Part shown: positions 8,235-35,328 of the stretch, piece by piece | How the letters are laid out: every line of letters begins with the position of its first letter | How positions within the stretch are numbered: position 1 is the stretch's first letter | Assembly (NCBI GenBank): GCA_016210705.1 | Contig: JACQTR010000183.1 | Location: forward strand, 1-36,092 | Length of the DNA stretch: 36,092 nucleotides | Source of the DNA: Chloroflexota bacterium | GTDB taxonomy: Bacteria; Chloroflexota; Dehalococcoidia; JACQTR01 | Direction: 5' to 3' | Notes under the pieces: model-generated | Told to the model about the DNA's origin: nothing | Databases searched by the model: none | Seen by the model: only the letters and a program-made list of their open reading frames with translations | Position numbers and translations under genes: made by a program

Positions 8235-10466
8235 TTATTTATAGACTTGCGCCCGCCCGTTATCATAGACCTTCCCCTTGCCCTGGAGCAGACCGCTATC
8301 CGCAATGCTAAGGTAAATAGGCTCACCCAAGGGTACTAGCGGCGGCAGCCTCACCTCCCCACGCTCCACGTTAAACCCCCTCAAATACAGATAGGCACCA
8401 GGTGGCACCTCCGCCTTTCGGAAGAAACCTTGCATTTCAGCCTCGGTTTTCGGACGCTCCCAGCCACCCAGAACTATAATATTGGGCGCATCGGGATACC
8501 CCCAAAAAGTCACCACACCATTAACATCGGCATAGACCTGGGCCTCCGGTGACCCCAGATGTTTGGAGAGCCAGCGGGCGCCTCCCTCCTCGCGTCGATC
8601 GAAGCGGGCGAAGTCCACCTTTGGAGAGAGAGCAAAGGAACTGGGAATATCACCCACCGCCTGGAACACCCAGCCACTTTGGAATAAGAAATAGGGCACC
8701 AGGACAAGAAGCACAGCCGCCAGGGACAGGCGCTCCACTATATCCCGCGCCAGCCACCGACTGATTAGCTGAAATAAAAAGTCTATTCCCAAAACGAAAA
8801 AGGGCGAAAGCAGCAGCAAGCCTACGAAATATAGTCGGTCGGAGCGGAACCCTCCGGTGGTGAAAAAGGGGACGAAGGTCATCGCCAGCGATAGCAAACC
8901 GACAGCAGAAAGCAGAAGGTACAGAGAGGAAAATCCTGTCTCCCGCCGTCTAAGCACCTTTATCGCCATACCTAAGGCTCCTACGCCAATGAGCACCCTG
9001 GTGAAACGACTAAGGTCGGCTGCCAGTCTATACCATAATGAGGGTATCCTTAACGGAGCCATCCCTAGCTGCCGTAAGACACCTTGATCTGTGGACACAG
9101 GGTTAAGAAATTCGTTCAGGCTTTTATACATGTGATCTCCCCAGCGGATAATCTCTTCAAACATCGCCCCTTTCGCAGTATTCATGTACCAAGCGAAGGA
9201 TAATGCAAAGAAGAGAGCTACCAGAGTTCCGCTGAGGATTTCATGGCTATCGCCTGGCATATCATGGCCTGCCCCTCCGATTCGACCACCCGCTGGTCGC
9301 AGTCCAAGAAGTAGGGGTTTAACGGCCAGGGCCAACGCTAAGTAAATAAGCCATAGGTAGGTCATGCCGTAGTAAGAGATTACCATAGAGGCGCCGAAAA
9401 CAATGGTTAGGAACACTTTATCCCATGACCTTCTCTCGTCGGTCATGGTCAAGACAACAAGGACCGCAAAAAGCATGCCCATGCCCTGCTTGGCCAGCTC
9501 CGTGCCGGTGATATAGAAAGCAGGGAAGGCCATCAAAAAGAAGGAGGCCAGGAAAGCCTTGCGAGACTCTATCTGCCGACGGTAAAGGACATAAAGCCCC
9601 AGTGGCACCAAGGAGAAAAACAAGGGATATATTGCTTTGAAAAACCATATCCCGGAGATATCTAAAAAGCGGGTGTAAATAGTGGGCAGTATGGTAACCG
9701 ACAGAGTAATAGCGTATTGAGGGAACCCCGCTGTGGAGCTCCATAGAGAGTTTTGCTCCGTCAGTTTGTAAACCAGGTGTTCCATCCTTACATCCCACCC
9801 TACCAAATTGTCAGTTATCAGTGTCCTGTGGAGTAGTAGGGAGATAGCGATCAGAAGGACAGCTACCGGCAGCAGGCGCTGGGGTATGAATCGGCCCCAA
9901 GCAGCCAACACGACCACCATCGCTACCAGGGGAAACATTACCATGAATAGGATATTATTCTGCTGGAAGTTGAACTGTGCGGCTCCAGCAATGCTCAGAA
10001 GAGGGAGGATAAAGAGAAAAAGTAAGGGCAGCAGAGGGATTCTTTCTCCAACGGACCTCAGGGAGAATACAAAGCCCCGATCAATCCAGTAGCTCAGGCC
10101 CATTAAGAGTAGGACAGCAACGGTAAAGGTGGCAGAGAGAGATAGGAGGGATAGGGGCCGATAAACGCCTATCATAGGATACAACCAGTTGATCAGTAGA
10201 CCGATAAACATCAAAAAGGCCAAGCTCAGGCCGACAGCGTAGAGCAGGGCCTCCACGGGGCTCAGGCTACGGATACGGAGAATGCGAAGGAGCAAGAATC
10301 CGGGCACGAAAGTGAGGTAAACGAAGCCGATAAGCGTTCCTGCTACTGGCAAAGCATAACCTAGTAGGGCCAGGGCTACCACCACCAGGATGCCAATCTG
10401 GATGGCCAGAACCAAGTTAAGGAAGCGGCCTATTGGCCAGTCAATAGGGGGTCGCAAAAGCATCAT
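8235..10466 (-). CDS. Large polytopic membrane protein with a C-terminal soluble domain; GT-C-like glycosyltransferase/polymerase candidate (resembles the archaeal DUF2206 family)
   Basis: 743 aa with about 15 or more hydrophobic segments, followed by a roughly 150-aa hydrophilic C-terminus. The family name comes from recollection of this architecture, not from a search. Confidence 0.55.
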   Translation of the reverse strand: MMLLRPPIDWPIGRFLNLVLAIQIGILVVVALALLGYALPVAGTLIGFVYLTFVPGFLLLRILRIRSLSPVEALLYAVGLSLAFLMFIGLLINWLYPMIGVYRPLSLLSLSATFTVAVLLLMGLSYWIDRGFVFSLRSVGERIPLLPLLFLFILPLLSIAGAAQFNFQQNNILFMVMFPLVAMVVVLAAWGRFIPQRLLPVAVLLIAISLLLHRTLITDNLVGWDVRMEHLVYKLTEQNSLWSSTAGFPQYAITLSVTILPTIYTRFLDISGIWFFKAIYPLFFSLVPLGLYVLYRRQIESRKAFLASFFLMAFPAFYITGTELAKQGMGMLFAVLVVLTMTDERRSWDKVFLTIVFGASMVISYYGMTYLWLIYLALALAVKPLLLGLRPAGGRIGGAGHDMPGDSHEILSGTLVALFFALSFAWYMNTAKGAMFEEIIRWGDHMYKSLNEFLNPVSTDQGVLRQLGMAPLRIPSLWYRLAADLSRFTRVLIGVGALGMAIKVLRRRETGFSSLYLLLSAVGLLSLAMTFVPFFTTGGFRSDRLYFVGLLLLSPFFVLGIDFLFQLISRWLARDIVERLSLAAVLLVLVPYFLFQSGWVFQAVGDIPSSFALSPKVDFARFDRREEGGARWLSKHLGSPEAQVYADVNGVVTFWGYPDAPNIIVLGGWERPKTEAEMQGFFRKAEVPPGAYLYLRGFNVERGEVRLPPLVPLGEPIYLSIADSGLLQGKGKVYDNGRAQVYK

Positions 10467-12648: not shown

Positions 12649-12852
12649 TTATACTATCCCCAACTTGGCCTTTATTACTGACAAGGCTGCTCGAATATCC
12701 TTATCGGAGTGTACCAATTCCACCTCACCACTGACCTTTAATATATATTCCTCCGTGCCCTCAGGGCTACGCACATATACTTTTCCTTCCGAGACTACGA
12801 TATTGCCATGTCCCTCTGCGGGCGTCCTAGCGTACAGATCAATTAAATTCAT
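12649..12852 (-). CDS. Hypothetical 67-aa soluble protein
   Basis: The ATG overlaps the stop of the upstream gene (ATGA). GAGGAGGGAGGA lies directly upstream. I recognise no motif. Confidence 0.65.
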   Translation of the reverse strand: MNLIDLYARTPAEGHGNIVVSEGKVYVRSPEGTEEYILKVSGEVELVHSDKDIRAALSVIKAKLGIV

Positions 12853-13604
12853 TCCTCCCTCCTCAATCGGAACCCAATCTCATCCACATAGGCTAAGTCG
12901 GTGACGACAGTTCCTGCTAGTGACAACGCCCACCCCGTGCCCATAATAGTGAGGCCCAAAATCTGCGCAGCACCATTAGCAGGAGTACCTGATCCATAGG
13001 CGTGTCTCCCTTGCCATGTCCCTAACACATAGGCCGCTTTGTCCAAATACCAGTAAGAGCCGTTCCCGCTGCCCTGTCTTTTGAATATCCAGCTAACAGC
13101 CCCCAGACCAGCATGAGTAAGAACAACGGGAAACTTTGCGGTTGTGCCATATGTTCCCACCGCCAGCCAAACCTGGCAAAGGCTGACCACCGCGTTGCCT
13201 TGGTCAACCCAGAGGTACACTTTTATTTGGTTGGCCGTGCCCAGGCTGAAATCGGCGGCAACGTTGGCCCCAGCGTACTGGGCACCGGTGGCATTCCAGA
13301 TTCCTGTGGCCTTCTCCACCCCATTGACCTCAATGGAGTAAAAGAGTTGGGTAGCCGCGGGGCTGCCGCCAAAGCTATCTATGGTTACCTGGAGTCGCAA
13401 GCCTAACTGGGGCACAGCAATCTGGCTATTCGTGATGGCAGGGACCGTCAGATTGGTTGAATAATCGGGCGAGGCTTGTTTGGCTGTAGCCACCACCGAC
13501 TTCGTCCCCGGTTCCAGATCTCCTGAGTCCTGTATTCCGGGGGTGTAGGTTATTTGCTCTATCATCTCCACTGAGGCCAGAGCGCCAGCAAACCTTAAAG
13601 TCAT
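12849..13604 (-). CDS. Hypothetical 251-aa beta-rich Gly/Thr/Ala/Val-rich protein with no signal peptide or TM segment
   Basis: ATG 13604 is preceded by GGAGGAGG (13609..13616) at 4-nt spacing. The ORF track opens at GTG 13619, which would place that SD inside the coding sequence. I recognise no family. Confidence 0.7.
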   Translation of the reverse strand: MTLRFAGALASVEMIEQITYTPGIQDSGDLEPGTKSVVATAKQASPDYSTNLTVPAITNSQIAVPQLGLRLQVTIDSFGGSPAATQLFYSIEVNGVEKATGIWNATGAQYAGANVAADFSLGTANQIKVYLWVDQGNAVVSLCQVWLAVGTYGTTAKFPVVLTHAGLGAVSWIFKRQGSGNGSYWYLDKAAYVLGTWQGRHAYGSGTPANGAAQILGLTIMGTGWALSLAGTVVTDLAYVDEIGFRLRREE

Positions 13605-13633
13605 TTTTCCTCCTCCCACCCAAACTAACCCCG

Positions 13634-13663
13634 ATAATAGAACTAACGTTCTCTATTTGTCAA
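13634..13663 (-). promoter_or_regulatory. sigma70-type promoter candidate, TTGACA - 18 nt - TATTAT
   Basis: On the minus strand, the consensus -35 TTGACA is at 13663..13658 and the -10 TATTAT is at 13639..13634. It sits in the 94-nt gap upstream of the 251-aa gene. Confidence 0.5.
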
Positions 13664-13713: not shown

Positions 13714-15297
13714 CTACATAAGAAGCTTTCCTTGTTTTTTCAGCTCCCGCACCCTTCGCCTGATCAGTTCCCTTTCTCCCACCGCCTGATGGGATATCCC
13801 CCGAGTTGCCGCAACGCTTCCCTTTTTGAACAGTTCTTTGAGCACCTGGCCATCCATGTCCTCAGGAACAGGCAATCCCAACAGGTGCAGAACCGTAGGC
13901 GCTATGTCATAGACCTGGGCGCCCTCTATCCTCCCGCCAACATCAAAGTCCCCCCCTTGGGCAATTAAAATACCCTCCCCACGATGGGATCCACTAAAGC
14001 TGGTATTGGGCGCGGGGGAGCGAAATATGCTCTTATTAAAAGTATAATCTACACTGCAACTGAAGTCGTTCAAGGCGAAAATTATATCAGGGGCGAGTTC
14101 CAGGTATGGCCCCGAATAGAGGTCTTCCCGGTGGCGAACCACTACTGTTATACCCAGTTGTGAGCATACTTCCTCGAGTCTATCGGTGATTTCTTCCCCT
14201 AGCCTCCCGCGTTCTGAGGCCGAGTCTATAGCTGGGCTCAAAAAGATTCTGCCTGTAGAGGGGTCATGGATGTTAGCGAAGGCCAGGGTCCGTGTCATAT
14301 CTACTTGCTGGATAAAAGAAGCCGGGCGAGCCCTGGCCATCCAGCGCACTTTGTCGCGCATCGGCCGCGGTGCCAGGGTCCATATTTTAGTAAGGGAGCG
14401 ACGGATATCCCAAAGGATGCCGCTTGGTCGCCAAGCCCTGTGAAGATAGCCCTCCCCTTCCAGCCAGGAGTTGGTAAAAAAAGATTGGCTATGAGGCCCA
14501 AAACCATGGTCGGAAACTACCAGGATATTTCCTTTTTCATCAATGCCCTCCATCACCCGGCCCACAATGTCGTCAACCTGCTGCCACATTTGGTCAAAAA
14601 GAGGACGATAATGCTCTGCAGCTTGCCTTTGAAAACAGGGGTGGGCCTCGTCCAAATACTTCCACATAAAATGCTGCATGAAATCGGTGGCCGATATTAC
14701 TACGGTGAGAATATCTATATCTCGGGACAGGAATAGCTCCACAGCCTTTTTATTTATGTTTAGCAAGCGCATCACATCGCTAACGAAAGCAGAGGAACGG
14801 TGAGCATAACGAGGGCTATTCCAGTGAATATGCACCTCATAACCGTTACAGTGGCTGAAAAGCTCATCCTTAAGCTCCCTGGGGTAAGTAAAATCCCTAT
14901 CGAGAAAGGAACCCAAGCCGCCGACCATATATCCATTTATTGGATAAGGGGGGAACAGCCCTGGGAAATTCAAGATACCAACTTTAAACCCTGCTTGGGA
15001 AAGATAATCCCAATAGGCCCCCGATTTTCTAATGGCGCTGGAGTTCCATGCCTTCAGCTCCAGGCCACCCTTCACCGTGGGATTAAGAAAATCAAATACG
15101 CCGGTCTTTCCTGGGTTCTTGCCCGTAGCCACAGAAGTCCATGCAGCCGCGCTAACTGGCGGGAAGGTGCTATGAAGATAACCCCAGGAACCTTCTTTCA
15201 GGAGCTTACCTAAGTAAGGCAACCTGCCATCGGCAATTAATGGGTTTAAGATATCAAAAGTTGCGCCGTCCAGCCCGATCACCGCTAGTTTTACCAC
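13714..15297 (-). CDS. Alkaline-phosphatase superfamily protein (type I phosphodiesterase/nucleotide pyrophosphatase-like)
   Basis: VIGLDGATFD (metal Asp), the nucleophile region HSTFPPVSAAAWTSVATGKNPGKTG, VVSDHGFGPH, and a distal GSHRGEG. No TM segment and no signal peptide. GTG start with AAGGTGA upstream. Confidence 0.8.
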   Translation of the reverse strand: MVKLAVIGLDGATFDILNPLIADGRLPYLGKLLKEGSWGYLHSTFPPVSAAAWTSVATGKNPGKTGVFDFLNPTVKGGLELKAWNSSAIRKSGAYWDYLSQAGFKVGILNFPGLFPPYPINGYMVGGLGSFLDRDFTYPRELKDELFSHCNGYEVHIHWNSPRYAHRSSAFVSDVMRLLNINKKAVELFLSRDIDILTVVISATDFMQHFMWKYLDEAHPCFQRQAAEHYRPLFDQMWQQVDDIVGRVMEGIDEKGNILVVSDHGFGPHSQSFFTNSWLEGEGYLHRAWRPSGILWDIRRSLTKIWTLAPRPMRDKVRWMARARPASFIQQVDMTRTLAFANIHDPSTGRIFLSPAIDSASERGRLGEEITDRLEEVCSQLGITVVVRHREDLYSGPYLELAPDIIFALNDFSCSVDYTFNKSIFRSPAPNTSFSGSHRGEGILIAQGGDFDVGGRIEGAQVYDIAPTVLHLLGLPVPEDMDGQVLKELFKKGSVAATRGISHQAVGERELIRRRVRELKKQGKLLM

Positions 15298-15336
15298 GGC
15301 TCACCTTTCATCTGAGATCTGCACTGTTTCACAGGA

Positions 15337-16113
15337 TCAGCCCAATTCCCCTCGGATAGCGCGGAACATGTCCTGTGGAGTCTCAATGTCGTAATCGACA
15401 TTGACGGTAATCAGCAAGGCGTTCTCGTGATGATCGCCTTTTAGCGCTCCCTCTGACGTTTTCTCTGGCAACGTCCGCACTTTTGCTTCGCCAAAGGCGC
15501 AAAACCCGTGGTCGGAGACCACCACCAGCTCGTTTTGTCCGCTGTCCAGAAAGTTAGAATCGAAGACAAGCTCCCCGATCTTTGCGTCTAATCTTCTATA
15601 CCAGTCAAAAACACACTCCTCGCCCCAATGGAAGTGTTGAACTCTGTCTAAAAAGGTATAAACAGAGATGAGCAAATCCAAGTCTTCCCACAGAAGCTGC
15701 TTAGTCTCCTCGGTGACTCTATAGAGTTCCTCTTCCCACTCTCCCTCATTGGTGGGCAATCCGAAACCCACTGGCTTGAAATTAACCCCGAAGGAAAAGG
15801 GCGGCACCACGAAAGGAACATTCAGGGCTTTGGCCCTTTTCCCCTCTCGGTGCAAAATATCCCAAATGAAGTCCACTTTTATATCCTGCCTTTTTACCAG
15901 CTCGCCGTTAACAACAAAACTCTCATGCCGGTGCTCCTCTGGGGTCTTTCCTGAGAACATACTGCACCAGACCGAGGGTGAGATGGGCTTCTCGGTGAGG
16001 ACTAACTCTTTACACTTACCACTTTGGCATAGACGTTGGAAGTTATTCAGCCGAGACAAATTGGGCCTTATCACGCTCCAAGTGGCAGCATCGATCCCCA
16101 AAACAAAAATCAC
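15337..16113 (-). CDS. Short alkaline-phosphatase/NPP-fold protein (258 aa)
   Basis: [40 protein letters not shown] and GDHHE reproduce the AlkP-core metal and nucleophile positions. The GTG start overlaps the cysN stop (GTGA). Confidence 0.7.
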
Positions 16114-17321
16114 TCCAAAGCCTCCAGCACCACCCCAACCCCAATATGTCGGTTACCTTTCACCAGAACAAACCTGCCCAGCTCAGGAATATCAGAGAAC
16201 CTCTCCACTACCAGAGGCTCCGTGGCCAGAAGAACAGTGGCCGCTTCATTCTCACCTATCTCCGATGGTCCGGCCTCGACTATCGCTCCGGTCTCCGCGC
16301 TTATTTTCTCCTTTATCTCCCTAACCTCACACTTTACTCTATTAGTCCCGCAGCGGAGCTCCAACTCCTCTCCCTTCCCCAAACTCCCATCCAATAAAAC
16401 TACCTCGCCCCAAAATCGCCGTACCGCCATAGGGGCACTTCCCACCAAGCCGAGCACATCCCCGCGCTTAGCTACCCCATCGATTACAAGGCCTACGCTG
16501 TCTCCCGATTGCGCCCGCTCTTGGTCGGCGGGAAACACCCTTATCCGCTCTATCTTAGTCCTCGTATCCGAGGGTTGAACAACTATTTCATCTCCTATTT
16601 TCATCAAGCCAGCAATCACTCTGCCCACGATAATTTCTTGCGATTCAACCCGATATTCCCCCTGAACCACAAACCTTAAGGGCTTCGGCTCCAGACTCAA
16701 GTTCACTTGATCTAACGCTTCTATGAGCGTAGGGCCCCGATACCACTTCATCCGCTGCGATGACCGATAGATGTTTTCTCCTTCTGCTGCTGAGGCTGGT
16801 ATGAACGACACATCGGAGTAGCCAAGGGAAGTCAAAGCCGCGCCCACGTCTTCCCTAACAGTGCGGAAGGACTCTTCACTGTAGTCCAGGACATCCATTT
16901 TGTTTACGACAACGAAGAGCCGCTTTATCCCCAGCATTTTGAGCAGAAAGGCGTGTCTCCTAGTCTGCTCCTGAACGCCTTCCTGGGCTGAAACAACCAA
17001 CACAGCCAGCTCGGCGTGAGAGGCCCCAGTCAACATGTTCTTTATGAATTCCTTGTGTCCTGGTACATCAGCAATGCTATATAGGGCTTTCTTACTCTTA
17101 AACATCACCTCGGTGGTATCTATGGTTCTCTCTTCCTTCAGCTCGTCCTCAAAAGAGTCTATAAAATAAGCGAATTCAAAACGCTTCTTATATTCCTCGG
17201 CCAACTGTTGTATCTCCGCCAGCCGACCTTCTCTTATGCTCTCAGAATCGTAAAGCAGCCTTCCTATTAAGGTAGATTTGCCATGGTCAATATGGCCAGC
17301 AACGACTACGTTCACCTTCAT
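16110..17321 (-). CDS. cysN: Sulfate adenylyltransferase subunit 1 (CysN-type EF-Tu-like GTPase), with no fused APS-kinase domain
   Basis: G1 [10 protein letters not shown]3 DVPGH and G4 NKMD motifs, followed by beta-barrel domains. It is 403 aa and sits directly downstream of cysD. Confidence 0.85.
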
Positions 17322-17330
17322 TCGATTACC

Positions 17331-18131
17331 TCACATATACCCCAAAGCGCGAAGCTTCTGCATAGTAAACGCCTTCTCTTTGTCCTGCGCCCTTCCAGAC
17401 CTCTCCGCAGTCTTGCTCACTTCCAGCTCTTCCACTATCTCATCTATAGTTTTCGAGGTGGACTCTATAGGAAAGGTACATGGCTCACAACCCAAGCTAC
17501 GATACCTTTTACCATCCTTAGCAAAGTACATCTGGTTCACCGGGATATTCTCTTGCCTCACATATTGCCAGATATCCAGCTCCCTCCAATGCAGGATGGG
17601 GTGAACTCTAATGTGGGTGCTTTCCCCAGCAAGGCTTTGGTATTGGTCCCACATTTCTAGGGGCTGATCCTTATAATTCCATCGGAAATCCTCGTCTCGG
17701 GGCGAAAAATACCTCTCCTTAGCCCTTATTCCATGCTCATCTCTCCTTATGGCCAGTATAAGGGCATCGAAGCCATTTTCCTCTACGCATTCCTTCAAGG
17801 CCTGAGTTTTCAATCTAGTACAACATTCAAACTTTCCATTGCCCGGCCCCACGCCCTCCTTGTTCGCCTGCTCGTTTCTGATTATCAATAAACGAAGGCC
17901 CCACTCGTTGGCGATCCTGTCCCTGAAGCTGTACATGGGTTTAAATTTGTAACCGGTATCTATGTGGATAACTGGAAAAGGAATCTCGCCGAAAAAGGCT
18001 TTTCGGCATAGCCAGAGGACAGCGGTACTATCCTTACCGGTACTCCACAGCACTGCTGGCCGCTGAAACTCGGCGTAGGCCTCTCTTAATATATAGACGC
18101 TTCTATTCTCAAGGTCTTTTAAGTCTAGCAT
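17331..18131 (-). CDS. cysD: Sulfate adenylyltransferase subunit 2 (CysD, PP-loop ATP pyrophosphatase fold)
   Basis: PP-loop STGKDS; HIDTGYKF, RRDEHGIRAKERYFSPRD, HPILHWRELDIWQY; C-terminal tail ...KLRALGYM. Confidence 0.9.
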   Translation of the reverse strand: MLDLKDLENRSVYILREAYAEFQRPAVLWSTGKDSTAVLWLCRKAFFGEIPFPVIHIDTGYKFKPMYSFRDRIANEWGLRLLIIRNEQANKEGVGPGNGKFECCTRLKTQALKECVEENGFDALILAIRRDEHGIRAKERYFSPRDEDFRWNYKDQPLEMWDQYQSLAGESTHIRVHPILHWRELDIWQYVRQENIPVNQMYFAKDGKRYRSLGCEPCTFPIESTSKTIDEIVEELEVSKTAERSGRAQDKEKAFTMQKLRALGYM

Positions 18132-18176: not shown

Positions 18177-18401
18177 CTATTTCAAATAGCCCAGTGCCTT
18201 CAACCTTTTCTTCACCATCTCCTCCTCTTCTTCACTGAAACTCACCTCTGTCTCATCTTCTTTAAGGACTTCCTCAAGGACAAATACAACATATTCGTCT
18301 ACCGAAAGGAAGTCAGCATGGCTCATCCTTTCCCCTATTCTCCGATAAAGGTCAGCCGGCAGCGATACAGTCCTTTTTTCATCTTGCGGTTTCACCGTCA
18401 C
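18177..18401 (-). CDS. Small ribbon-helix-helix (CopG-like) protein candidate with an acidic linker and a basic C-terminal tail
   Basis: N-terminal RTVSLPADLYRRIGERM...SVDEYVVFVLEEVL fits a strand-helix-helix pattern. AAGGAGGG lies upstream. GTG starts are possible at 18401 or 18395. Confidence 0.5.
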   Translation of the reverse strand: MTVKPQDEKRTVSLPADLYRRIGERMSHADFLSVDEYVVFVLEEVLKEDETEVSFSEEEEEMVKKRLKALGYLK

Positions 18402-19569: not shown

Positions 19570-20700
19570 TTAAAAATCCCGGCTCCGTTCCCTAAGCTCA
19601 AAAAATACCTGTCGCGTCAGCCCGGGATTAAACATATGCAGCCACTGTCGAAGAAGGCTTACGGTAAACTTCCGCTCGCTAAGTTTCTCAGCCATTGCCC
19701 CCAGCAGTGTCCACCAGCCATAGCGGTGAGGGGTGTGGAAGCCCTTACGAACCAGCCTGGCAGGCTCTCCAGGACTAATCCCTAGATTAGCCGAGAGCAA
19801 GAGGAGCCTTTCGGGGACAAAGCCGTTGGCAGCCTGATGCAGGGCAGCGGCTAGGGCCAGAAAGGTCCGAGTGGCTCTCACTAGCCGATGGCGCCTTACC
19901 TCTACCAGGAAAAGGTTCAATTCCTCTTCTGACAATGATGCCAGGTGGTAGAGAAAAGTGTAATAATCCCCCAACCGATAGGACTGCTCCACTAGACCAT
20001 GAATTATGACGACGACCATCTCCAGCTCCGGCGCCAGGGTGGCCACTTTATCCCCGCTGGCAAGTGGCATACGGATCACCTTTTCTCGCCACAAATCCTT
20101 ATCCATCCACACAATGTAGCTGGTGCCAAACTCTCTTTGTAAGTCTAAATCCACACCTGTTACAGGGTCTATAAAGTCAGTACCAGTAGCACTGACATGC
20201 TTTGTACCATAAGTAGGGGTCGATAATCTCTTTACTGCCACGTGATGGTCAGAGTCACCGGAAAGAGATATATCACGTATCAGATGGGGAAGCTCCGGCT
20301 CATATCCTGCTTCAAGCAGTGTCCTGATGGCTATTTCATACATTTGCCCATCCCCCAACACCATCACATCGGCGTCTTTGCCCCACGAGGGATAGGGTCT
20401 CAGCGTCTTAAAAAAAGTATGCTTAACCCCTGCCTCCCTGAGTAGCCTATCTGCCTTGGCCATAGCCTTTTCCTGGTTCTGGCAGCGTACGAGCTCAGCC
20501 TCATATTCCGCCTTCAACTCCTTAAGGCGTCCGGTCCGCTCCAGGGACTCCAAATAGAGCAGCCCTATTTTGTTTCTCTGAGCTACGTCGTAAAGGTTCT
20601 GGGACTCCTTTACTCTTCCAAAGTCTGAAGCTCCGAAGGGCGAGCCGATACTTCTTAATAGGGCTATGGTAGCATTGGATGAAAGCTTGGTGGTGGTCAT
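19570..20700 (-). CDS. Uncharacterised nucleotidyltransferase-family protein (NTP_transf_5-like, pol-beta NTase fold)
   Basis: AGVKHTFFKTLRPYPSWGKDADVMVLGD...LLEAGYE matches the G..R..D.D..V...L...GY pattern of that family. ATGA overlap with the upstream gene. Confidence 0.55.
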   Translation of the reverse strand: MTTTKLSSNATIALLRSIGSPFGASDFGRVKESQNLYDVAQRNKIGLLYLESLERTGRLKELKAEYEAELVRCQNQEKAMAKADRLLREAGVKHTFFKTLRPYPSWGKDADVMVLGDGQMYEIAIRTLLEAGYEPELPHLIRDISLSGDSDHHVAVKRLSTPTYGTKHVSATGTDFIDPVTGVDLDLQREFGTSYIVWMDKDLWREKVIRMPLASGDKVATLAPELEMVVVIIHGLVEQSYRLGDYYTFLYHLASLSEEELNLFLVEVRRHRLVRATRTFLALAAALHQAANGFVPERLLLLSANLGISPGEPARLVRKGFHTPHRYGWWTLLGAMAEKLSERKFTVSLLRQWLHMFNPGLTRQVFFELRERSRDF

Positions 20701-22340
20701 ATTTTGACAAAATCTTCCACACGGGCAAGGATAGCGCTTCGCAATTCTGCTGGCCTATTTCTCCCATCCAGAACCGTGGCACCAATCTCTTCCCCCAGCT
20801 TCAAGAAGAGTTGTCTCCTTTCCATTAAATACTCTACGCTCGGCGTATCCTGTTTTCTGGAAAAAGCCTCAGCCTCGGGAAGGTCCAGGACAAAGGTCAC
20901 ACCAGGGCGGGGAAGGAATTTTAGAAAGCTACGAAGCAAAGCCCTCGTTTGGGGCCAGGAATAACCCATATCTACCGCCACATCTACCAGACTATCGAAA
21001 AAGTAGCGGTCACAGACTACTATTTTCTTTCTGAGTAAAGGCAAGCGAACCTTAATCTGGGTCTGGAGCCAGCAGTCCAACAGTAAGCTGTAGAGAAAGA
21101 GGCGGGCTAGGAAAGGCCTTGTCAAGAGACCTCTTTTGGCTTGGGAGTAACCTATATAGCCCCGTTTGCGACGTAATAGTGCAGCCCTTACAATCGCCCA
21201 AGGGATAGCCACCAGCCAAGGCTGGAAGCGGTTCCACACGTAACGGGCAGGAATCCCCCTCTCTAGCAAAGCGTGAGTCAGGGCTTGGGCTTGAGTGGTC
21301 TTACCTGCCCCGTCCATACCGCTTAAGCAGATTAGGGTTGACCTCTTCCTTTGGCTCTTTTGGATGGTATCAATATAAAACTGCTCCAACTGGGAGATGA
21401 CATTTCCCCACGAATAGGAGGAGACCTTTTCTCTGGTCTTCACTCCCGTTCCTTCCTTCACTGCCGCCACCTGGCGCTGTAGGCTGGCTCGGCCATTAAG
21501 CCAGAAAAAGCCGTCTCCTTCTTCCACAAGACGAGGCAGCGCTCCAAATTTGGTGGCCACAATGGGCAGATTGCAGGCCATGGCCTCCAGCACAGAAAGG
21601 GGTAGCTCCACGGCATGGCGGGAGCCGGGAGGCGTGGGGAAGACGTAGCCATCGGCCAGACGATAGGCCTCCTCTATGTTCTCTATATAAGAATGCCAAA
21701 CGATACACCCCCGCTGCTCCAGTTTTTTCATCAGCCGAGGATTGGCGGGTATAGTAACGCTACCCACCACGATAATGTCGCTATTTTTCATGTCAAGGAC
21801 CTCGGCTAAAGCCTCCAGCCCCCGCCCCTTAACTATGGGGCCAACGTGAACAAAATAAAATTTCTTCTCCTCCAGCCCAAACCTCCGGCGCAGGCAAGCC
21901 TTTTCCTCTTCCGTAGCCGGTGAGAACCTTTGAGTATCCACCCCATTAGGGAAGAATTTGATGACACAGCCCAAATGAGAAAAATGGGCCTCCGTTTCCT
22001 CGGATTGAACGAGAACTAGGTCGGGTTTAAAAAAAAGAAGTAGGCAGCGGGAAAGAAAGGAGCGGGGGATAAAGTGAGCAGATAGGACAGTACGGCCTCC
22101 TGTGAGCCAGGCTAGCGCCCTAGTTATGGCAAAGCTCCATAGTGAAGAGCCCGGTACATAGTGTATTATGTGAGGTTTGAAATCTCGGGCCTCCTTCCAA
22201 AACGATGGCGACAGCACCCTACTTAAACTCAGGTGAAGCACCTGATGGCGTTGAGAAAGGCCCTCCTCCATATGAAAGGCTACCTTCCTCATCCCCTCGT
22301 CGCTGCGCCCAGTGTAGTTGCTAACTAGACAGACCCTCAT
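20697..22340 (-). CDS. Fusion protein: N-terminal GT4 glycosyltransferase plus C-terminal thymidylate-kinase-like P-loop kinase domain
   Basis: The first ~330 residues are GT-B-like (VFPTPPGSRHAVELPLSVLEAMACNLPIVATKFGALPRLVEEGDGF). The C-terminal ~215 residues have the P-loop LSGMDGAGKTTQAQAL and CDRYFFDS, the dTMP-kinase DRY motif. It is one uninterrupted ORF. Confidence 0.75.
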   Translation of the reverse strand: MRVCLVSNYTGRSDEGMRKVAFHMEEGLSQRHQVLHLSLSRVLSPSFWKEARDFKPHIIHYVPGSSLWSFAITRALAWLTGGRTVLSAHFIPRSFLSRCLLLFFKPDLVLVQSEETEAHFSHLGCVIKFFPNGVDTQRFSPATEEEKACLRRRFGLEEKKFYFVHVGPIVKGRGLEALAEVLDMKNSDIIVVGSVTIPANPRLMKKLEQRGCIVWHSYIENIEEAYRLADGYVFPTPPGSRHAVELPLSVLEAMACNLPIVATKFGALPRLVEEGDGFFWLNGRASLQRQVAAVKEGTGVKTREKVSSYSWGNVISQLEQFYIDTIQKSQRKRSTLICLSGMDGAGKTTQAQALTHALLERGIPARYVWNRFQPWLVAIPWAIVRAALLRRKRGYIGYSQAKRGLLTRPFLARLFLYSLLLDCWLQTQIKVRLPLLRKKIVVCDRYFFDSLVDVAVDMGYSWPQTRALLRSFLKFLPRPGVTFVLDLPEAEAFSRKQDTPSVEYLMERRQLFLKLGEEIGATVLDGRNRPAELRSAILARVEDFVKI

Positions 22341-33133: not shown

Positions 33134-34642
33134 TTAGGGGAGAGCGGTGCCCAGAGGTACTAGCAGGCGTTGACCACTGACAAGAGTCCTATCCTGCAAG
33201 CTATTCAATTCTACTATCATCTCCACGGTAGTGCCGTAATAGCTGGCGATTCCAGTCAGGGTATCCCCAGTCGCCACTACGTGAAGGGTCATGGGTTGGC
33301 TAGGCACATTTAGCTGTCGATAAGCGAGGATCGTATTCTTGTCCTCCAGCTTGTTCAACATAAGCAATACATCAATTGTGGTACCCAAGCGCCTGGCGAT
33401 GGAAAAAAGAGTATCGCCAGGCGCAACAGTATAGCTCATCACCCAAGTAGTTGGCGAAGGCTTTGGACTGGCAGTCGGAGTTGTCGTAGGAAGAGGTGTC
33501 GGAGACGCCAAGCCAATCGGCCCAACTTTTATATAGCTAACTATTATCCACCCCACCAGGCCCCCATCATCCCTGACCTGCCACCAAAAAAGTCCATCTT
33601 TTTGCGCCTCTTCTCCCATCACCCAAAGGGCAGCACCCTCTGGCAGAACCCGCAAAATGGCAGAGGTAAGACCGGGAGTCTCCCGAAAATTCAAGCCCGC
33701 GTCCCCAGTGCCGCTCACAGTCGCCAATACCAGGTCTTTAGGCCGAGCAAAGATCGGGGTAGAGGTCGCCGTAGGAACCCAGGCTGTCGTTGGCATGGGA
33801 GTTAAAATGCTGGCAGGTTTGGAATGTGCCCCAGAAACAATGCCCGGAGCCTTGGAGAAAAAGGATATGTCAGGCAATCTTATCTCACCTAGAGGCAGAA
33901 CAGAGATTCCCCATAAGGGAATGAACAAAAAGAGACTGGAATTTAGCAAGCCGTGGGCGAGGGTCGTCCCCAGAATGGAGCCAGTTAGCCTCACAATCCA
34001 GGCAAAAAAGAGGCCAACGGCGAATACGAAAGCTAGCTCTACTACGCTGTAATAGCCCATGTGAAGAAGGCCGAAAAGCGCCGACACGTAAATTAGACCC
34101 CAACCCTGCATCCGCTCCAGGGCAGCCTTTTGCAACACCCCCCGAAAGACCAACTCCTCGGTAAAACCGGTGCCCACTATTATGATAATAGTTGGCAGCC
34201 AAAGGGCGCTGAAGCTGAAGGTATCGGCTAAGGGCTCAGGCTTCAAAATGAGGTACTCCACCGCCCCCAGAGGCAGCCCTATCAGCCCCACCACTACCTG
34301 TAAGGGCAGCCCACGCAGGGTAAGGCCCACATCCCGTCGAGAATAACCCACAAGCCGAACGCAGATGAAGGTGGCTATCAACAGGGGCACAGCGATTATG
34401 GCATACCAGTAGAGGATGAGTATGCTCCCCAGTGGCATAGAAAGGCTGAGAATACGAATCAAAGGAGCCAAGGAAAGACCCAGGTATAACTTGTGGACGG
34501 GAGGATCGCTGACGAGGGAAGCATGGGCCACTAAAGTCAGCAGAAGAAGGGCATGAAAAACGACCCCAGCCAGCGGACTGGCTAAGGTGGTAACCGCCTC
34601 CGCACCACCGATGGCGATAAGATAGAGAAGGAGTACTCTCAC
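33134..34642 (-). CDS. CPBP-family intramembrane glutamic endopeptidase fused to an SH3b domain and two LysM domains
   Basis: CPBP motifs EELVFRG, FGLLH and HGLLN in a multi-TM N-terminal half. An SH3b-like segment follows (GLNFRETPGLTSAILRVLPEGAALWV...WWQV...GWI). Two LysM repeats close the protein (YTVAPGDTLFSIARRLGTT..., HVVATGDTLTGIASYYGTT...). GTG 34642 overlaps the upstream stop (GTGA), with AAGGAGGG just upstream. Confidence 0.85.
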   Translation of the reverse strand: MRVLLLYLIAIGGAEAVTTLASPLAGVVFHALLLLTLVAHASLVSDPPVHKLYLGLSLAPLIRILSLSMPLGSILILYWYAIIAVPLLIATFICVRLVGYSRRDVGLTLRGLPLQVVVGLIGLPLGAVEYLILKPEPLADTFSFSALWLPTIIIIVGTGFTEELVFRGVLQKAALERMQGWGLIYVSALFGLLHMGYYSVVELAFVFAVGLFFAWIVRLTGSILGTTLAHGLLNSSLFLFIPLWGISVLPLGEIRLPDISFFSKAPGIVSGAHSKPASILTPMPTTAWVPTATSTPIFARPKDLVLATVSGTGDAGLNFRETPGLTSAILRVLPEGAALWVMGEEAQKDGLFWWQVRDDGGLVGWIIVSYIKVGPIGLASPTPLPTTTPTASPKPSPTTWVMSYTVAPGDTLFSIARRLGTTIDVLLMLNKLEDKNTILAYRQLNVPSQPMTLHVVATGDTLTGIASYYGTTVEMIVELNSLQDRTLVSGQRLLVPLGTALP

Positions 34643-35328
34643 AACCCTCCTTTGACATCCACCCAAAGGTACAAGGATCGATAGGCCTCGCTGACCCCCT
34701 CTTTATACAGCAGAAACTCCGCTAGCTGTGCCCGCCCCGCCTTGATAGCCTGAAAGCCGATTTCCCCCTCCCACCTCTGCCCATCATCCAAATTTATATG
34801 GCCTATGTCCTTCGTCTTTTCCCCATTGATAGTTATCTCTATACGGTAAACCACAGGCTCCCCTTCCTCATTCACTATACCTAGCTCCACTTTGGCCTCA
34901 TCTCCTAAAGTGATCTCCTGAGGATAGCCCTCTGCTTTCCCATCAAGGCCCAACATATAGAACTCGGTGAACCTCTCGCCGGCCTTAGGCTTAGCAATGA
35001 CATAGGTCAGACTTCCCAACGTCCCCAAAATGGCCAGAGCCAGGATGATGGCCAGCATCCTTCTCCAGACGCTTTGATACCTCCAGCTCAGGAGCAGGCT
35101 AAAGGGAGTCAACTGCCGCCCAGGCTCACGGCGAATAACGGGGAGCGATCTCCAGCGCCGAAGGAAGACAATAACCACCATCGCCAAGATGATGAAGACC
35201 CCCAACAACGAAACAAAAAATAGCCCTACGCCCCCAGGGGTGGAATTAGGTACTAGCCCAATTAAAGATACCCAAGCGAGACTCAGGCTACGGCTTAAAG
35301 CTAAACCAAAGACTGTCCTAATTATCAA
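34639..35328 (-). CDS. DUF1616-like membrane protein (TM segments plus a beta-sandwich-like ectodomain)
   Basis: Three hydrophobic segments, then FTEFYMLGLDGKAEGYPQEITLGDEAKVELGIVNEEGEPVVYRIEI, which matches my recollection of the archaeal DUF1616 core. The TTG start overlaps the upstream stop (TTGA). Confidence 0.6.
   Translation of the reverse strand: MIIRTVFGLALSRSLSLAWVSLIGLVPNSTPGGVGLFFVSLLGVFIILAMVVIVFLRRWRSLPVIRREPGRQLTPFSLLLSWRYQSVWRRMLAIILALAILGTLGSLTYVIAKPKAGERFTEFYMLGLDGKAEGYPQEITLGDEAKVELGIVNEEGEPVVYRIEITINGEKTKDIGHINLDDGQRWEGEIGFQAIKAGRAQLAEFLLYKEGVSEAYRSLYLWVDVKGGL

Follow-up and report, generated by a model that had tools for sequence, protein, structure and literature searches.

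A conserved CysD-CysN-AlkP cassette in envelope glycan clusters of Dehalococcoidia and archaea and its possible role in glycan sulfation

The window analysed here is the whole 36,092-bp contig JACQTR010000183.1 of a Chloroflexi metagenome-assembled genome (MAG). Its minus strand carries a block of five genes that places the ATP sulfurylase subunits CysD and CysN next to two proteins of the AlkP type. The first gene of the module (18177–18401) encodes s74, a 74-aa ribbon-helix-helix-like (RHH-like) protein which we found by tblastn with its family from related loci. It is followed by the gene for the 266-aa CysD, the catalytic PP-loop subunit of ATP sulfurylase (17331–18131), and by the gene for a 403-aa CysN-like GTPase subunit (16110–17321). 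The last two genes encode sAlkP (15337–16113), a minimal, cap-less NPP-type AlkP-fold enzyme of 258 aa, and LAlkP (13714–15297), a COG3379-type AlkP/NPP-fold enzyme of 527 aa. An earlier note on this DNA had described the four genes from cysD to LAlkP as a co-directional block, and all four open reading frames (ORFs) were found on the minus strand where it had placed them. The fifth gene had been overlooked: the start of s74 shares 1 nt with the stop of the preceding glycosyltransferase (GT4) gene, and s74 fills the supposed gap before cysD.

The genes are tightly packed. The GTGA that is common to the cysN stop and the sAlkP start, as claimed earlier, was read in the sequence; the remaining junctions of the block are 9, 39, and 45 nt long, each with a Shine-Dalgarno sequence. 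The 9-nt junction separates the cysD stop from the cysN start, and cysD itself is preceded by the Shine-Dalgarno sequence AGAGGTGG. The surroundings are those of a glycan cluster. Pfam identified glycosyltransferases, methyltransferases, radical-SAM enzymes, a Wzx flippase, and a Wzy_C protein in the window, together with a GDP-heptose pathway (SIS isomerase, GHMP kinase, and a nucleotidyltransferase-HAD fusion), which bears out the previous placement of the block inside a heptose-containing glycan operon.

CysD matches PF01507 (E 2.9e-41) and NCBIfam NF003587 (335 bits, passing the cutoff of 195), is 40% identical to E. coli CysD from end to end, and contains the PP-loop 'STGKDS'. The 403-aa GTPase consists of a G domain (GTP_EFTU), a domain II (domain 2), and a domain III (eEF1A C-terminal domain), has the G1–G4 motifs, and is 34% identical to E. 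coli CysN (E 4e-73). It scores 293 with TIGR02034 (cutoff 336) and 361 with the EF-1alpha model, likewise under that model's own cutoff. Judging from these comparisons, the protein is probably a divergent CysN. The assignment is supported by the CysD gene that adjoins it in more than 100 loci, and a published phylogeny groups the ANME-1 (anaerobic methanotrophic archaea) homologues with CysN (PMC6286981). Pfam found no APS-kinase domain (PF01583) on CysN, in agreement with the earlier description of a cysN without CysC fusion. Because CysD and CysN are homologous to the GTP-driven ATP sulfurylase, the module is predicted to make adenosine 5'-phosphosulfate (APS) at the expense of GTP.

Both AlkP proteins match PF01663 (E 1.6e-14 for sAlkP and E 2.2e-35 for LAlkP), besides a weak match to SGSH_C. 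In alignments of homologues, the residues D8, S45, D156, H160, D201, H202, and H228 of sAlkP and D10, T/S49 (Ser in the window), D205, H209, D263, H264, and H438 of LAlkP are invariant or nearly so. Both families have a full NPP-type two-metal site and a hydroxyl nucleophile, and Ser45 is the predicted nucleophile of sAlkP. No C/S-x-P-x-R motif occurs in the family alignments of sAlkP or LAlkP. The earlier note had seen the same combination of retained metal and nucleophile residues and missing motif. Since the formylglycine motif is missing, a role of either protein as a classical formylglycine (S1) sulfatase was ruled out.

The profile and structure searches that had been proposed for the two proteins returned PF01663 and the NPP/PhnA fold, and the two families additionally proved to be paralogous (hhalign probability 99.7%, E 6e-26, 27% identity). 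In the hhalign alignment, sAlkP is the LAlkP core minus an insertion of ~160 residues (LAlkP ~269–430) and minus the C-terminal tail. We read the insertion as a putative cap. The AlphaFold2 model of LAlkP has a predicted local distance difference test (pLDDT) score of 91.9, and Foldseek matched it to Xac NPP (E 7e-16) and PhnA at E ~1e-15 with template modeling (TM) scores of 0.65–0.69, normalised to the target; it superposes on these and on ENPPs at 12–16% identity. The sAlkP model (pLDDT 71.6) matched PhnA, NPP, and ENPP6 at E ~1e-5 (1.4e-5 for PhnA and NPPs). These models point to an AlkP alpha/beta core fold in both proteins. Each protein begins directly at the first core beta-strand, so both are predicted to be cytoplasmic and to have no signal peptide.

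The sAlkP family is tiny and tight. An exhaustive profile search of 1.84 billion cluster representatives returned 22 clusters at E <= 1e-30, and the nearest relatives past the family in the same search are of the 470–550-aa LAlkP type. Members of the COG3379-type family number in the thousands in archaea and Chloroflexota. Identity to sAlkP is 62–75% across Dehalococcoidia, Methanophagales (ANME-1), and Methanosarcinales, and 47–59% in Aenigmatarchaeota, Altiarchaeales, Hydrothermarchaeota, and one gammaproteobacterial MAG.

We compared the block with 130 related loci (50 from genomes and 80 from metagenomes; numbered with L), covering Dehalococcoidia, ANME-1, Methanosarcinales, DPANN, and Hydrothermarchaeota, and examined neighbourhoods of ±10 kb. 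CysD and CysN are same-strand neighbours of sAlkP in 37 of the 50 genome loci. Where at least 2.3 kb is available on both sides, the fraction is 17/21, and the exceptions include pseudogenised copies. The gap between the CysN stop and the sAlkP start is at most 30 nt in 22 of 35 genome loci. Upstream genes in the metagenome set were counted only in loci with enough upstream sequence (72, 34, 26 or 26 of 80): CysN lies immediately upstream of sAlkP in 69/72, CysD lies upstream in 34/34, a TauE or DUF2061 membrane protein is present in 24/26, and s74 in 25/26. Altogether, there are more than 100 loci where cysN is followed directly by sAlkP, the stop codon of the first often overlapping the start codon of the second. 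The consensus gene order reads s74a-s74b-TauE-CysD-CysN-sAlkP, and the order in DPANN and Hydrothermarchaeota is sAlkP-CysD(-CysN). Such recurrence goes far beyond what chance would give. CysD-CysN and sAlkP make up the obligate unit, joined by s74 and usually TauE, and LAlkP is facultative. The earlier view of the block as a functional unit is therefore upheld by its recurrence in the genome and metagenome loci, and of the four genes proposed to co-occur, CysD, CysN, and the small AlkP protein are obligate and the large one is not a fixed member. Sulfate uptake is probably part of the cassette.

In loci of Altiarchaeales, Hydrothermarchaeota, and Aenigmatarchaeota, sAlkP forms a pair with a CysD-like protein without CysN. 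A database protein, P0259 (436 aa), carries a degenerate sAlkP-like domain, with the His/Asp metal ligands lost, fused to CysD. The fusion may, in the Rosetta-stone sense, hint that sAlkP and CysD form a physical complex, or it may be a metagenomic artefact. Between Dehalococcoidia and ANME-1/Methanosarcinales (L005–L037), the identities are 71–82% for CysD, 57–67% for CysN, and 62–75% for sAlkP. This high identity between Bacteria and Archaea implies, at the level of sequence, a recent inter-domain transfer of the cassette among sediment dwellers.

E. coli has cysC directly behind cysN, and here sAlkP occupies the same slot. CysC was found within ±10 kb in 0/50 genome loci, even at E <= 1, and in 0/80 metagenome loci, CysH in 0/130, and none of the loci has an APS or PAPS (3'-phosphoadenosine 5'-phosphosulfate) reductase or a sulfite reductase. 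The Pfam scan of the window covered 32 ORFs (every non-nested ORF of at least 150 aa, plus the 74-aa ORF), among which neither APS_kinase nor the Sulfotransfer families (PF00685, PF13469 etc.) had a match, in line with the previous observation that both genes are missing there. A tblastn search of the window with E. coli CysC gave a P-loop match only (E 0.019), in the thymidylate-kinase-like tail of a GT4. This GT4 (20697–22340, minus strand) is fused to a thymidylate-kinase-like P-loop domain bearing hydrophobic insertions, which is the sole P-loop kinase among the scanned ORFs. We considered the domain as a hidden APS kinase and rejected it: it fits thymidylate kinase (Pfam 1e-9, TIGR00041 4e-11), its apsK match is confined to the P-loop (E 7e-4), and no related locus has a homologue. 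Among ~130–135 loci, canonical sulfotransferases occur only in L019 and L031, which belong to a Dehalococcoidia sub-lineage. There, TauE is followed by sAlkP without an intervening CysDN, and Sulfotransfer_3 proteins (L019:7505–8503, L031:12800–13948) and an ABC exporter lie downstream.

The small protein s74 is a recurrent companion of the unit. The window copy is 54% identical to the family from the related loci (tblastn, E 1e-16), and the family is present in 28 of 55 clustered sources (54 related loci and the window). It has an RHH-like N-terminus, an acidic linker, and a C-terminus that reads '...KKRLKALGYLK' in the window; the RHH_1 match of the family is weak (E 6e-4, from a paralogue). 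The tail '...RLRxLGYL' nearly equals the CysD C-terminus of the same operon ('...LRALGYM'), and E. coli CysD ends in '...RQGYF'. Loci without CysN or CysDN (L012, L031, L039, L099) still have s74 beside sAlkP, so the partner bound by the shared tail may be sAlkP or CysD and not CysN. The protein is probably a regulator or adaptor. It is commonly doubled, with adjacent paralogues s74a and s74b; examples of the family lie at L017:6602–7035 and L057:11612–11821, and the database protein P0242 has an s74-like tail in frame immediately ahead of sAlkP.

Other AlkP-superfamily genes are frequent around the unit. LAlkP is found at most 10 kb from the module in the window, L003/L004, L023 (two copies), L045, L047, L053, L059, L074, L110, and L126, and 20 kb off the module on one Dehalococcoidales contig (L002/L015). 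One cluster (L056) combines three LAlkP paralogues and a sulfatase-family gene with a flippase, TauE, s74, and sAlkP. In a distant archaeon (L057), CysD-CysN-divergent sAlkP-s74 is convergent with LAlkP amid housekeeping genes, outside a glycan cluster. Of the 32 metagenome loci that extend at least 3 kb downstream, 18 have a further AlkP-superfamily gene on that side. Another frequent neighbour is a 304-aa AlkP-like protein. Cytoplasmic PF00884 homologues with the motif T-P-x-S-F/V/H are found in L020:7554–8960, L050:13381–16135, L056:11603–12886, and others, often convergent with sAlkP. All ten full-length aligned members of these PF00884 neighbours (10/10) have Thr at the formylglycine position, no CxPxR, and no Arg at +4, and they are not classical sulfatases because of this Thr and the missing Arg. 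They weakly match phosphoethanolamine transferase and LtaS families. Judged by family, they are more likely candidates for relatives of the archaeal glycan sulfotransferases Agl30 and Agl31 (see below) than the PF01663 proteins are.

The frequent glycan neighbours are Wzx flippases, glycosyltransferases, and UDP-sugar dehydrogenases. An STT3/AglB-type oligosaccharyltransferase of ~1070 aa in Dehalococcoidales, with a WWDYG motif, Pfam STT3 and AglB_core matches, and C-terminal fn3-like repeats, adjoins the module in L015:10897–14109, L017, L023, L050, L063, L067, L109, and others. Its presence suggests that the surface proteins of Dehalococcoidales are N-glycosylated in the archaeal manner. 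The glycan cluster of the window also holds the membrane proteins DUF2206 (743 aa, 8235–10466) and DUF1616 (34639–35328), families that we take to be mainly archaeal, and DUF1616 appears again beside the module in ANME-1 loci. In some Chloroflexia, a Pst-type ABC transporter replaces or joins TauE upstream (L011:4276–7760, L012:157–3727, L053:16817–20312). Its PstA scores over the cutoff, PstB slightly under it, and PstS is half matched; the transporter may carry phosphate or have an altered oxyanion specificity. Small genes split cysD from cysN (L009, L026, L032, L050) or cysN from sAlkP, with further cases in L013, L024, and L025. They encode a 23S-rRNA-IVP four-helix protein or a nucleotidyltransferase and HEPN-like pair. 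The genes between cysD and cysN were dismissed as parts of the module, being selfish-looking insertions that break the tight coupling. Behind the block in the window, a sigma-70-like match (TTGACA-18-TATTAT, 11/12, 13634–13663, minus strand) lies in the 94-nt gap after the LAlkP gene. Such matches are as frequent in shuffled sequence, with no excess here, and the position of this one between the LAlkP stop and the next ORF suggests that the operon ends at LAlkP. The 256-aa ORF behind this putative promoter (12849–13619) has no Pfam or NCBIfam match and no homologue in the related loci.

The cassette is real, conserved, and undescribed, and we infer its mechanism. The reading we tentatively favour, with a confidence a little short of even, is that s74-cysD-cysN-sAlkP-LAlkP is a dedicated sulfate-activation and transfer module for an envelope glycan, in which sAlkP consumes APS. 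The earlier proposal that AlkP-fold enzymes underlie a non-canonical route of sulfation is thereby partly supported, with the small protein, not both, as the core partner of the sulfurylase. In the proposed mechanism, sAlkP would consume APS as CysD forms it and so would pull the unfavourable sulfurylase equilibrium. Ser45 would attack the sulfur of APS and AMP would leave, giving a covalent sulfo-enzyme. A parallel to this step is the phospho-enzyme intermediate of other transferases in the AlkP superfamily. The sulfuryl group would then pass to a lipid-linked glycan in the cytoplasm, ahead of flipping, either directly or via cap-bearing AlkP paralogues that would give acceptor specificity. 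Candidates for such paralogues are LAlkP in the window and, elsewhere, LAlkP copies, the Thr-type 'sulfatase-like' proteins, and the 304-aa AlkP-like protein. By analogy with Agl30/Agl31, LAlkP is a candidate acceptor-specific transferase.

Docking of sAlkP on the sulfurylase is suggested because the gene position, the codon overlap, the pairing with CysD only, the fusion protein, and the missing cap all fit it. The full form of this idea, in which sAlkP docks on CysD(N) and takes the sulfuryl group from APS as a sulfo-serine so that no CysC, PAPS, or Sulfotransfer-fold enzyme is needed, is possible but on balance unlikely. A strict APS dependence of the module, a claim that rests on absence, is equally doubtful.

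Several points weigh against the sulfation module as we have drawn it. The cysC count is limited to the 10 kb around the module, with other genome parts outside it. ANME-1b genomes are reported to encode and express CysC elsewhere, with an APS kinase in metaproteomes too (PMC6286981), and deep-sea Chloroflexota MAGs reportedly often carry CysC (PMC11005417). In L019 and L031, sAlkP accompanies Sulfotransfer_3 without CysDN. Given this layout and the extreme conservation of sAlkP, a nucleotide-handling role fits at least equally well, and a general role as a phosphatase of PAP (3'-phosphoadenosine 5'-phosphate) or pyrophosphate, or as a kinase analogue, would suit these two loci. That sAlkP is so highly conserved between domains also speaks against the idea that it acts itself on a variable glycan acceptor. 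The Pst-type transporter in place of TauE in some Chloroflexia keeps a link to phosphate possible. As to structure, the sAlkP model is of moderate quality, with the nucleophile loop below a pLDDT of 50, and a profile search of the PDB gave no match for sAlkP and a best match at 3e-6 for LAlkP (remote NPP/PhnA). Agl30 and Agl31, the closest precedent, are of the sulfatase family (PF00884-like), not PF01663, and their donor is unreported.

Some of these points would be met by a route through PAPS, in which CysC elsewhere in the genome makes PAPS for LAlkP or an unrecognised enzyme and sAlkP clears PAP, as a CysQ analogue, or pyrophosphate. We regard this as rather unlikely. The CysC genes reported from ANME-1b genomes (PMC6286981) and from many Chloroflexota MAGs (PMC11005417) could serve it, sAlkP lies near a PAPS-type Sulfotransfer_3 in L019 and L031 with no local CysDN, its extreme conservation suits a universal small-molecule substrate, and its family has a complete phosphatase-type two-metal site. 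A PAP phosphatase, however, is expected with the kinase or the sulfotransferase, whereas sAlkP is locked to cysN/cysD with overlapping codons, and cysC is in 0/130 loci. The CysD-only pairs and the sAlkP-CysD fusion indicate coupling to the sulfurylase step, and ubiquitous pyrophosphatases would presumably make a dedicated one superfluous. PAPS could also arise at the module itself if sAlkP replaced the APS kinase, passing a phosphoryl group from phospho-Ser45 to the 3'-OH of APS in a complex with CysD(N), with a donor such as the CysD pyrophosphate. That sAlkP sits in the exact cysC slot of cysDNC, with cysC never near, would then be explained; the use of both CysD products would explain the CysD pairing without CysN, and canonical sulfotransferases do occur with sAlkP in two loci (L019, L031). 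AlkP-superfamily mutases and phosphatases transfer phosphoryl groups through phospho-Ser, as iPGM and alkaline phosphatase do. Nevertheless, we think this very unlikely: the reasoning is from position alone, we know of no AlkP-fold nucleotide kinase, and such an activity would be redundant in genomes such as ANME-1b, which have a normal CysC.

The membership in PF01663, with NPP and PhnA as the nearest folds, and the hydroxyl nucleophiles typical of phosphoryl-transfer enzymes would suit ordinary phosphodiesterases or phosphotransferases that act on the glycan or its lipid carrier, in phospho-decoration or phosphodiester trimming, and are merely co-regulated with CysDN, whose APS would feed some unidentified sulfotransferase. 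The Pst-type phosphate transporter that adjoins the module in L011, L012, and L053 agrees with this idea. We consider it quite unlikely, as it leaves unexplained why sAlkP tracks CysD/CysN, not glycosyltransferases, across phyla and domains, and why it is fused to CysD. Nearly all loci are without another sulfotransferase candidate, and in L057 CysD-CysN-sAlkP-s74 and LAlkP stand alone amid housekeeping genes. The last alternative is that CysDN serves assimilatory sulfate reduction and the AlkP genes are passengers. The ANME-1 CysDN has been interpreted in this way (PMC6286981), and a TauE-type anion permease is upstream in most loci. The missing APS/PAPS reductase and sulfite reductase, the position of the module in glycan clusters beside flippases, glycosyltransferases, and an oligosaccharyltransferase, and the strict sAlkP linkage all stand against it and make it highly improbable. 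On the favoured reading, the block is not a cysteine-assimilation operon.

The closest precedent for the favoured sulfation module comes from Halobacterium salinarum, where deletion and heterologous expression identified Agl30 (VNG1056C) and Agl31 (VNG1057C) as AlkP-superfamily N-glycan sulfotransferases (Zaretsky et al. 2025, PMC11980604). Like the proteins of the module, these have an AlkP-like core and lie in a glycan cluster, with several paralogues per cluster and no Sulfotransfer-family domain. Their target is a lipid-linked glycan, in or at the cytoplasm, as is proposed for the module, and related Dehalococcoidales loci also have the AglB/STT3-type oligosaccharyltransferase. Agl30/31 are closest to glycosaminoglycan and ulvan sulfatases, and that study does not address their sulfate donor or report a CysDN linkage (PMC11980604). 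They are PF00884-like, whereas sAlkP and LAlkP are PF01663 proteins of the NPP type, and the likeness drawn here is one of description. In our literature search, sulfotransfer by the AlkP superfamily was tied to Agl30/31 only, and no paper was found on the function of COG3379 or on a CysDN-AlkP linkage. Haloferax Agl7 (HVO_2046) is implicated in the sulfation of dolichol phosphate (DolP)-hexose, and the accessible texts and supplements do not state its protein family.

The module resembles NodPQ-NodH, RaxPQ-RaxST, and mycobacterial CysDNC-Stf in its CysD/CysN pair, which stands beside genes for glycan or secondary-metabolite modification and apart from the cysteine pathway, and the cysDNC/NodPQ-type systems in its GTPase-coupled ATP sulfurylase. 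Those systems have an APS kinase fused or adjacent to CysN and a Sulfotransfer-family enzyme. Here, unlike the NodPQ type, the kinase slot holds sAlkP, with CysC in none of the 130 loci and canonical sulfotransferases in only two. Xanthomonas NPP, ENPP1-7, and PhnA share the fold, the two-metal site, and the Thr/Ser nucleophile with sAlkP and LAlkP, and NPPs bind AMP-containing substrates. They differ in sequence (12–17% identity); even the smallest NPPs exceed the cap-less sAlkP by ~120 residues, LAlkP has a different insertion of ~160 residues, and both proteins are predicted to be cytoplasmic. An NPP-type attack at the phosphorus of APS would merely hydrolyse it. The phosphoethanolamine transferases EptA/MCR-1 and LtaS, AlkP-superfamily enzymes with a covalent Thr intermediate, resemble the proposed mechanism in that their hydroxyl nucleophile accepts a charged group from an activated donor and relays it to a glycan or lipid of the envelope. 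These enzymes, however, are membrane-anchored and extracytoplasmic; their donors are phospholipids, and what they transfer is a phospho-alcohol instead of sulfate. The arylsulfate sulfotransferase ASST performs a PAPS-free sulfuryl transfer through a covalent sulfo-enzyme, as proposed for sAlkP, but has an unrelated beta-propeller fold, is periplasmic, and uses a histidine intermediate and phenolic sulfate donors (PMC11625862). The same 2024 review names only PAPS-dependent families and aryl sulfotransferases (PMC11625862).

What is new here is the fixed association of CysD/CysN with sAlkP in glycan clusters; AlkP-type glycan sulfotransferases have been known since 2025. Biological sulfation is taught as the work of PAPS and Sulfotransfer-fold enzymes, to which only the aryl sulfotransferases form an exception. 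The module has a substantial chance of representing a categorically new sulfotransfer route, and it is a testable candidate, with five genes that can be reconstituted and Ser45 as the candidate nucleophile. If the favoured reading is true, two uncharacterised families, the COG3379-type and sAlkP, would gain a function. In the full, less likely form of the idea, sulfation in Dehalococcoidia, ANME-1/2, several DPANN, and other archaea would proceed without APS kinase, PAPS, or a Sulfotransfer-fold enzyme, and the ANME-1 CysDN genes that are cited for sulfate assimilation would be glycan-sulfation genes. Caution is advisable before cysDN in ANME-1 is taken to prove that sulfate is reduced for assimilation. 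The module is nearly identical in Bacteria and Archaea, which documents that a putative envelope-modification cassette has passed between the domains. For the uncultured sediment lineages that carry it, among them Dehalococcoidia, ANME, and DPANN, the reading predicts sulfated surface glycans.

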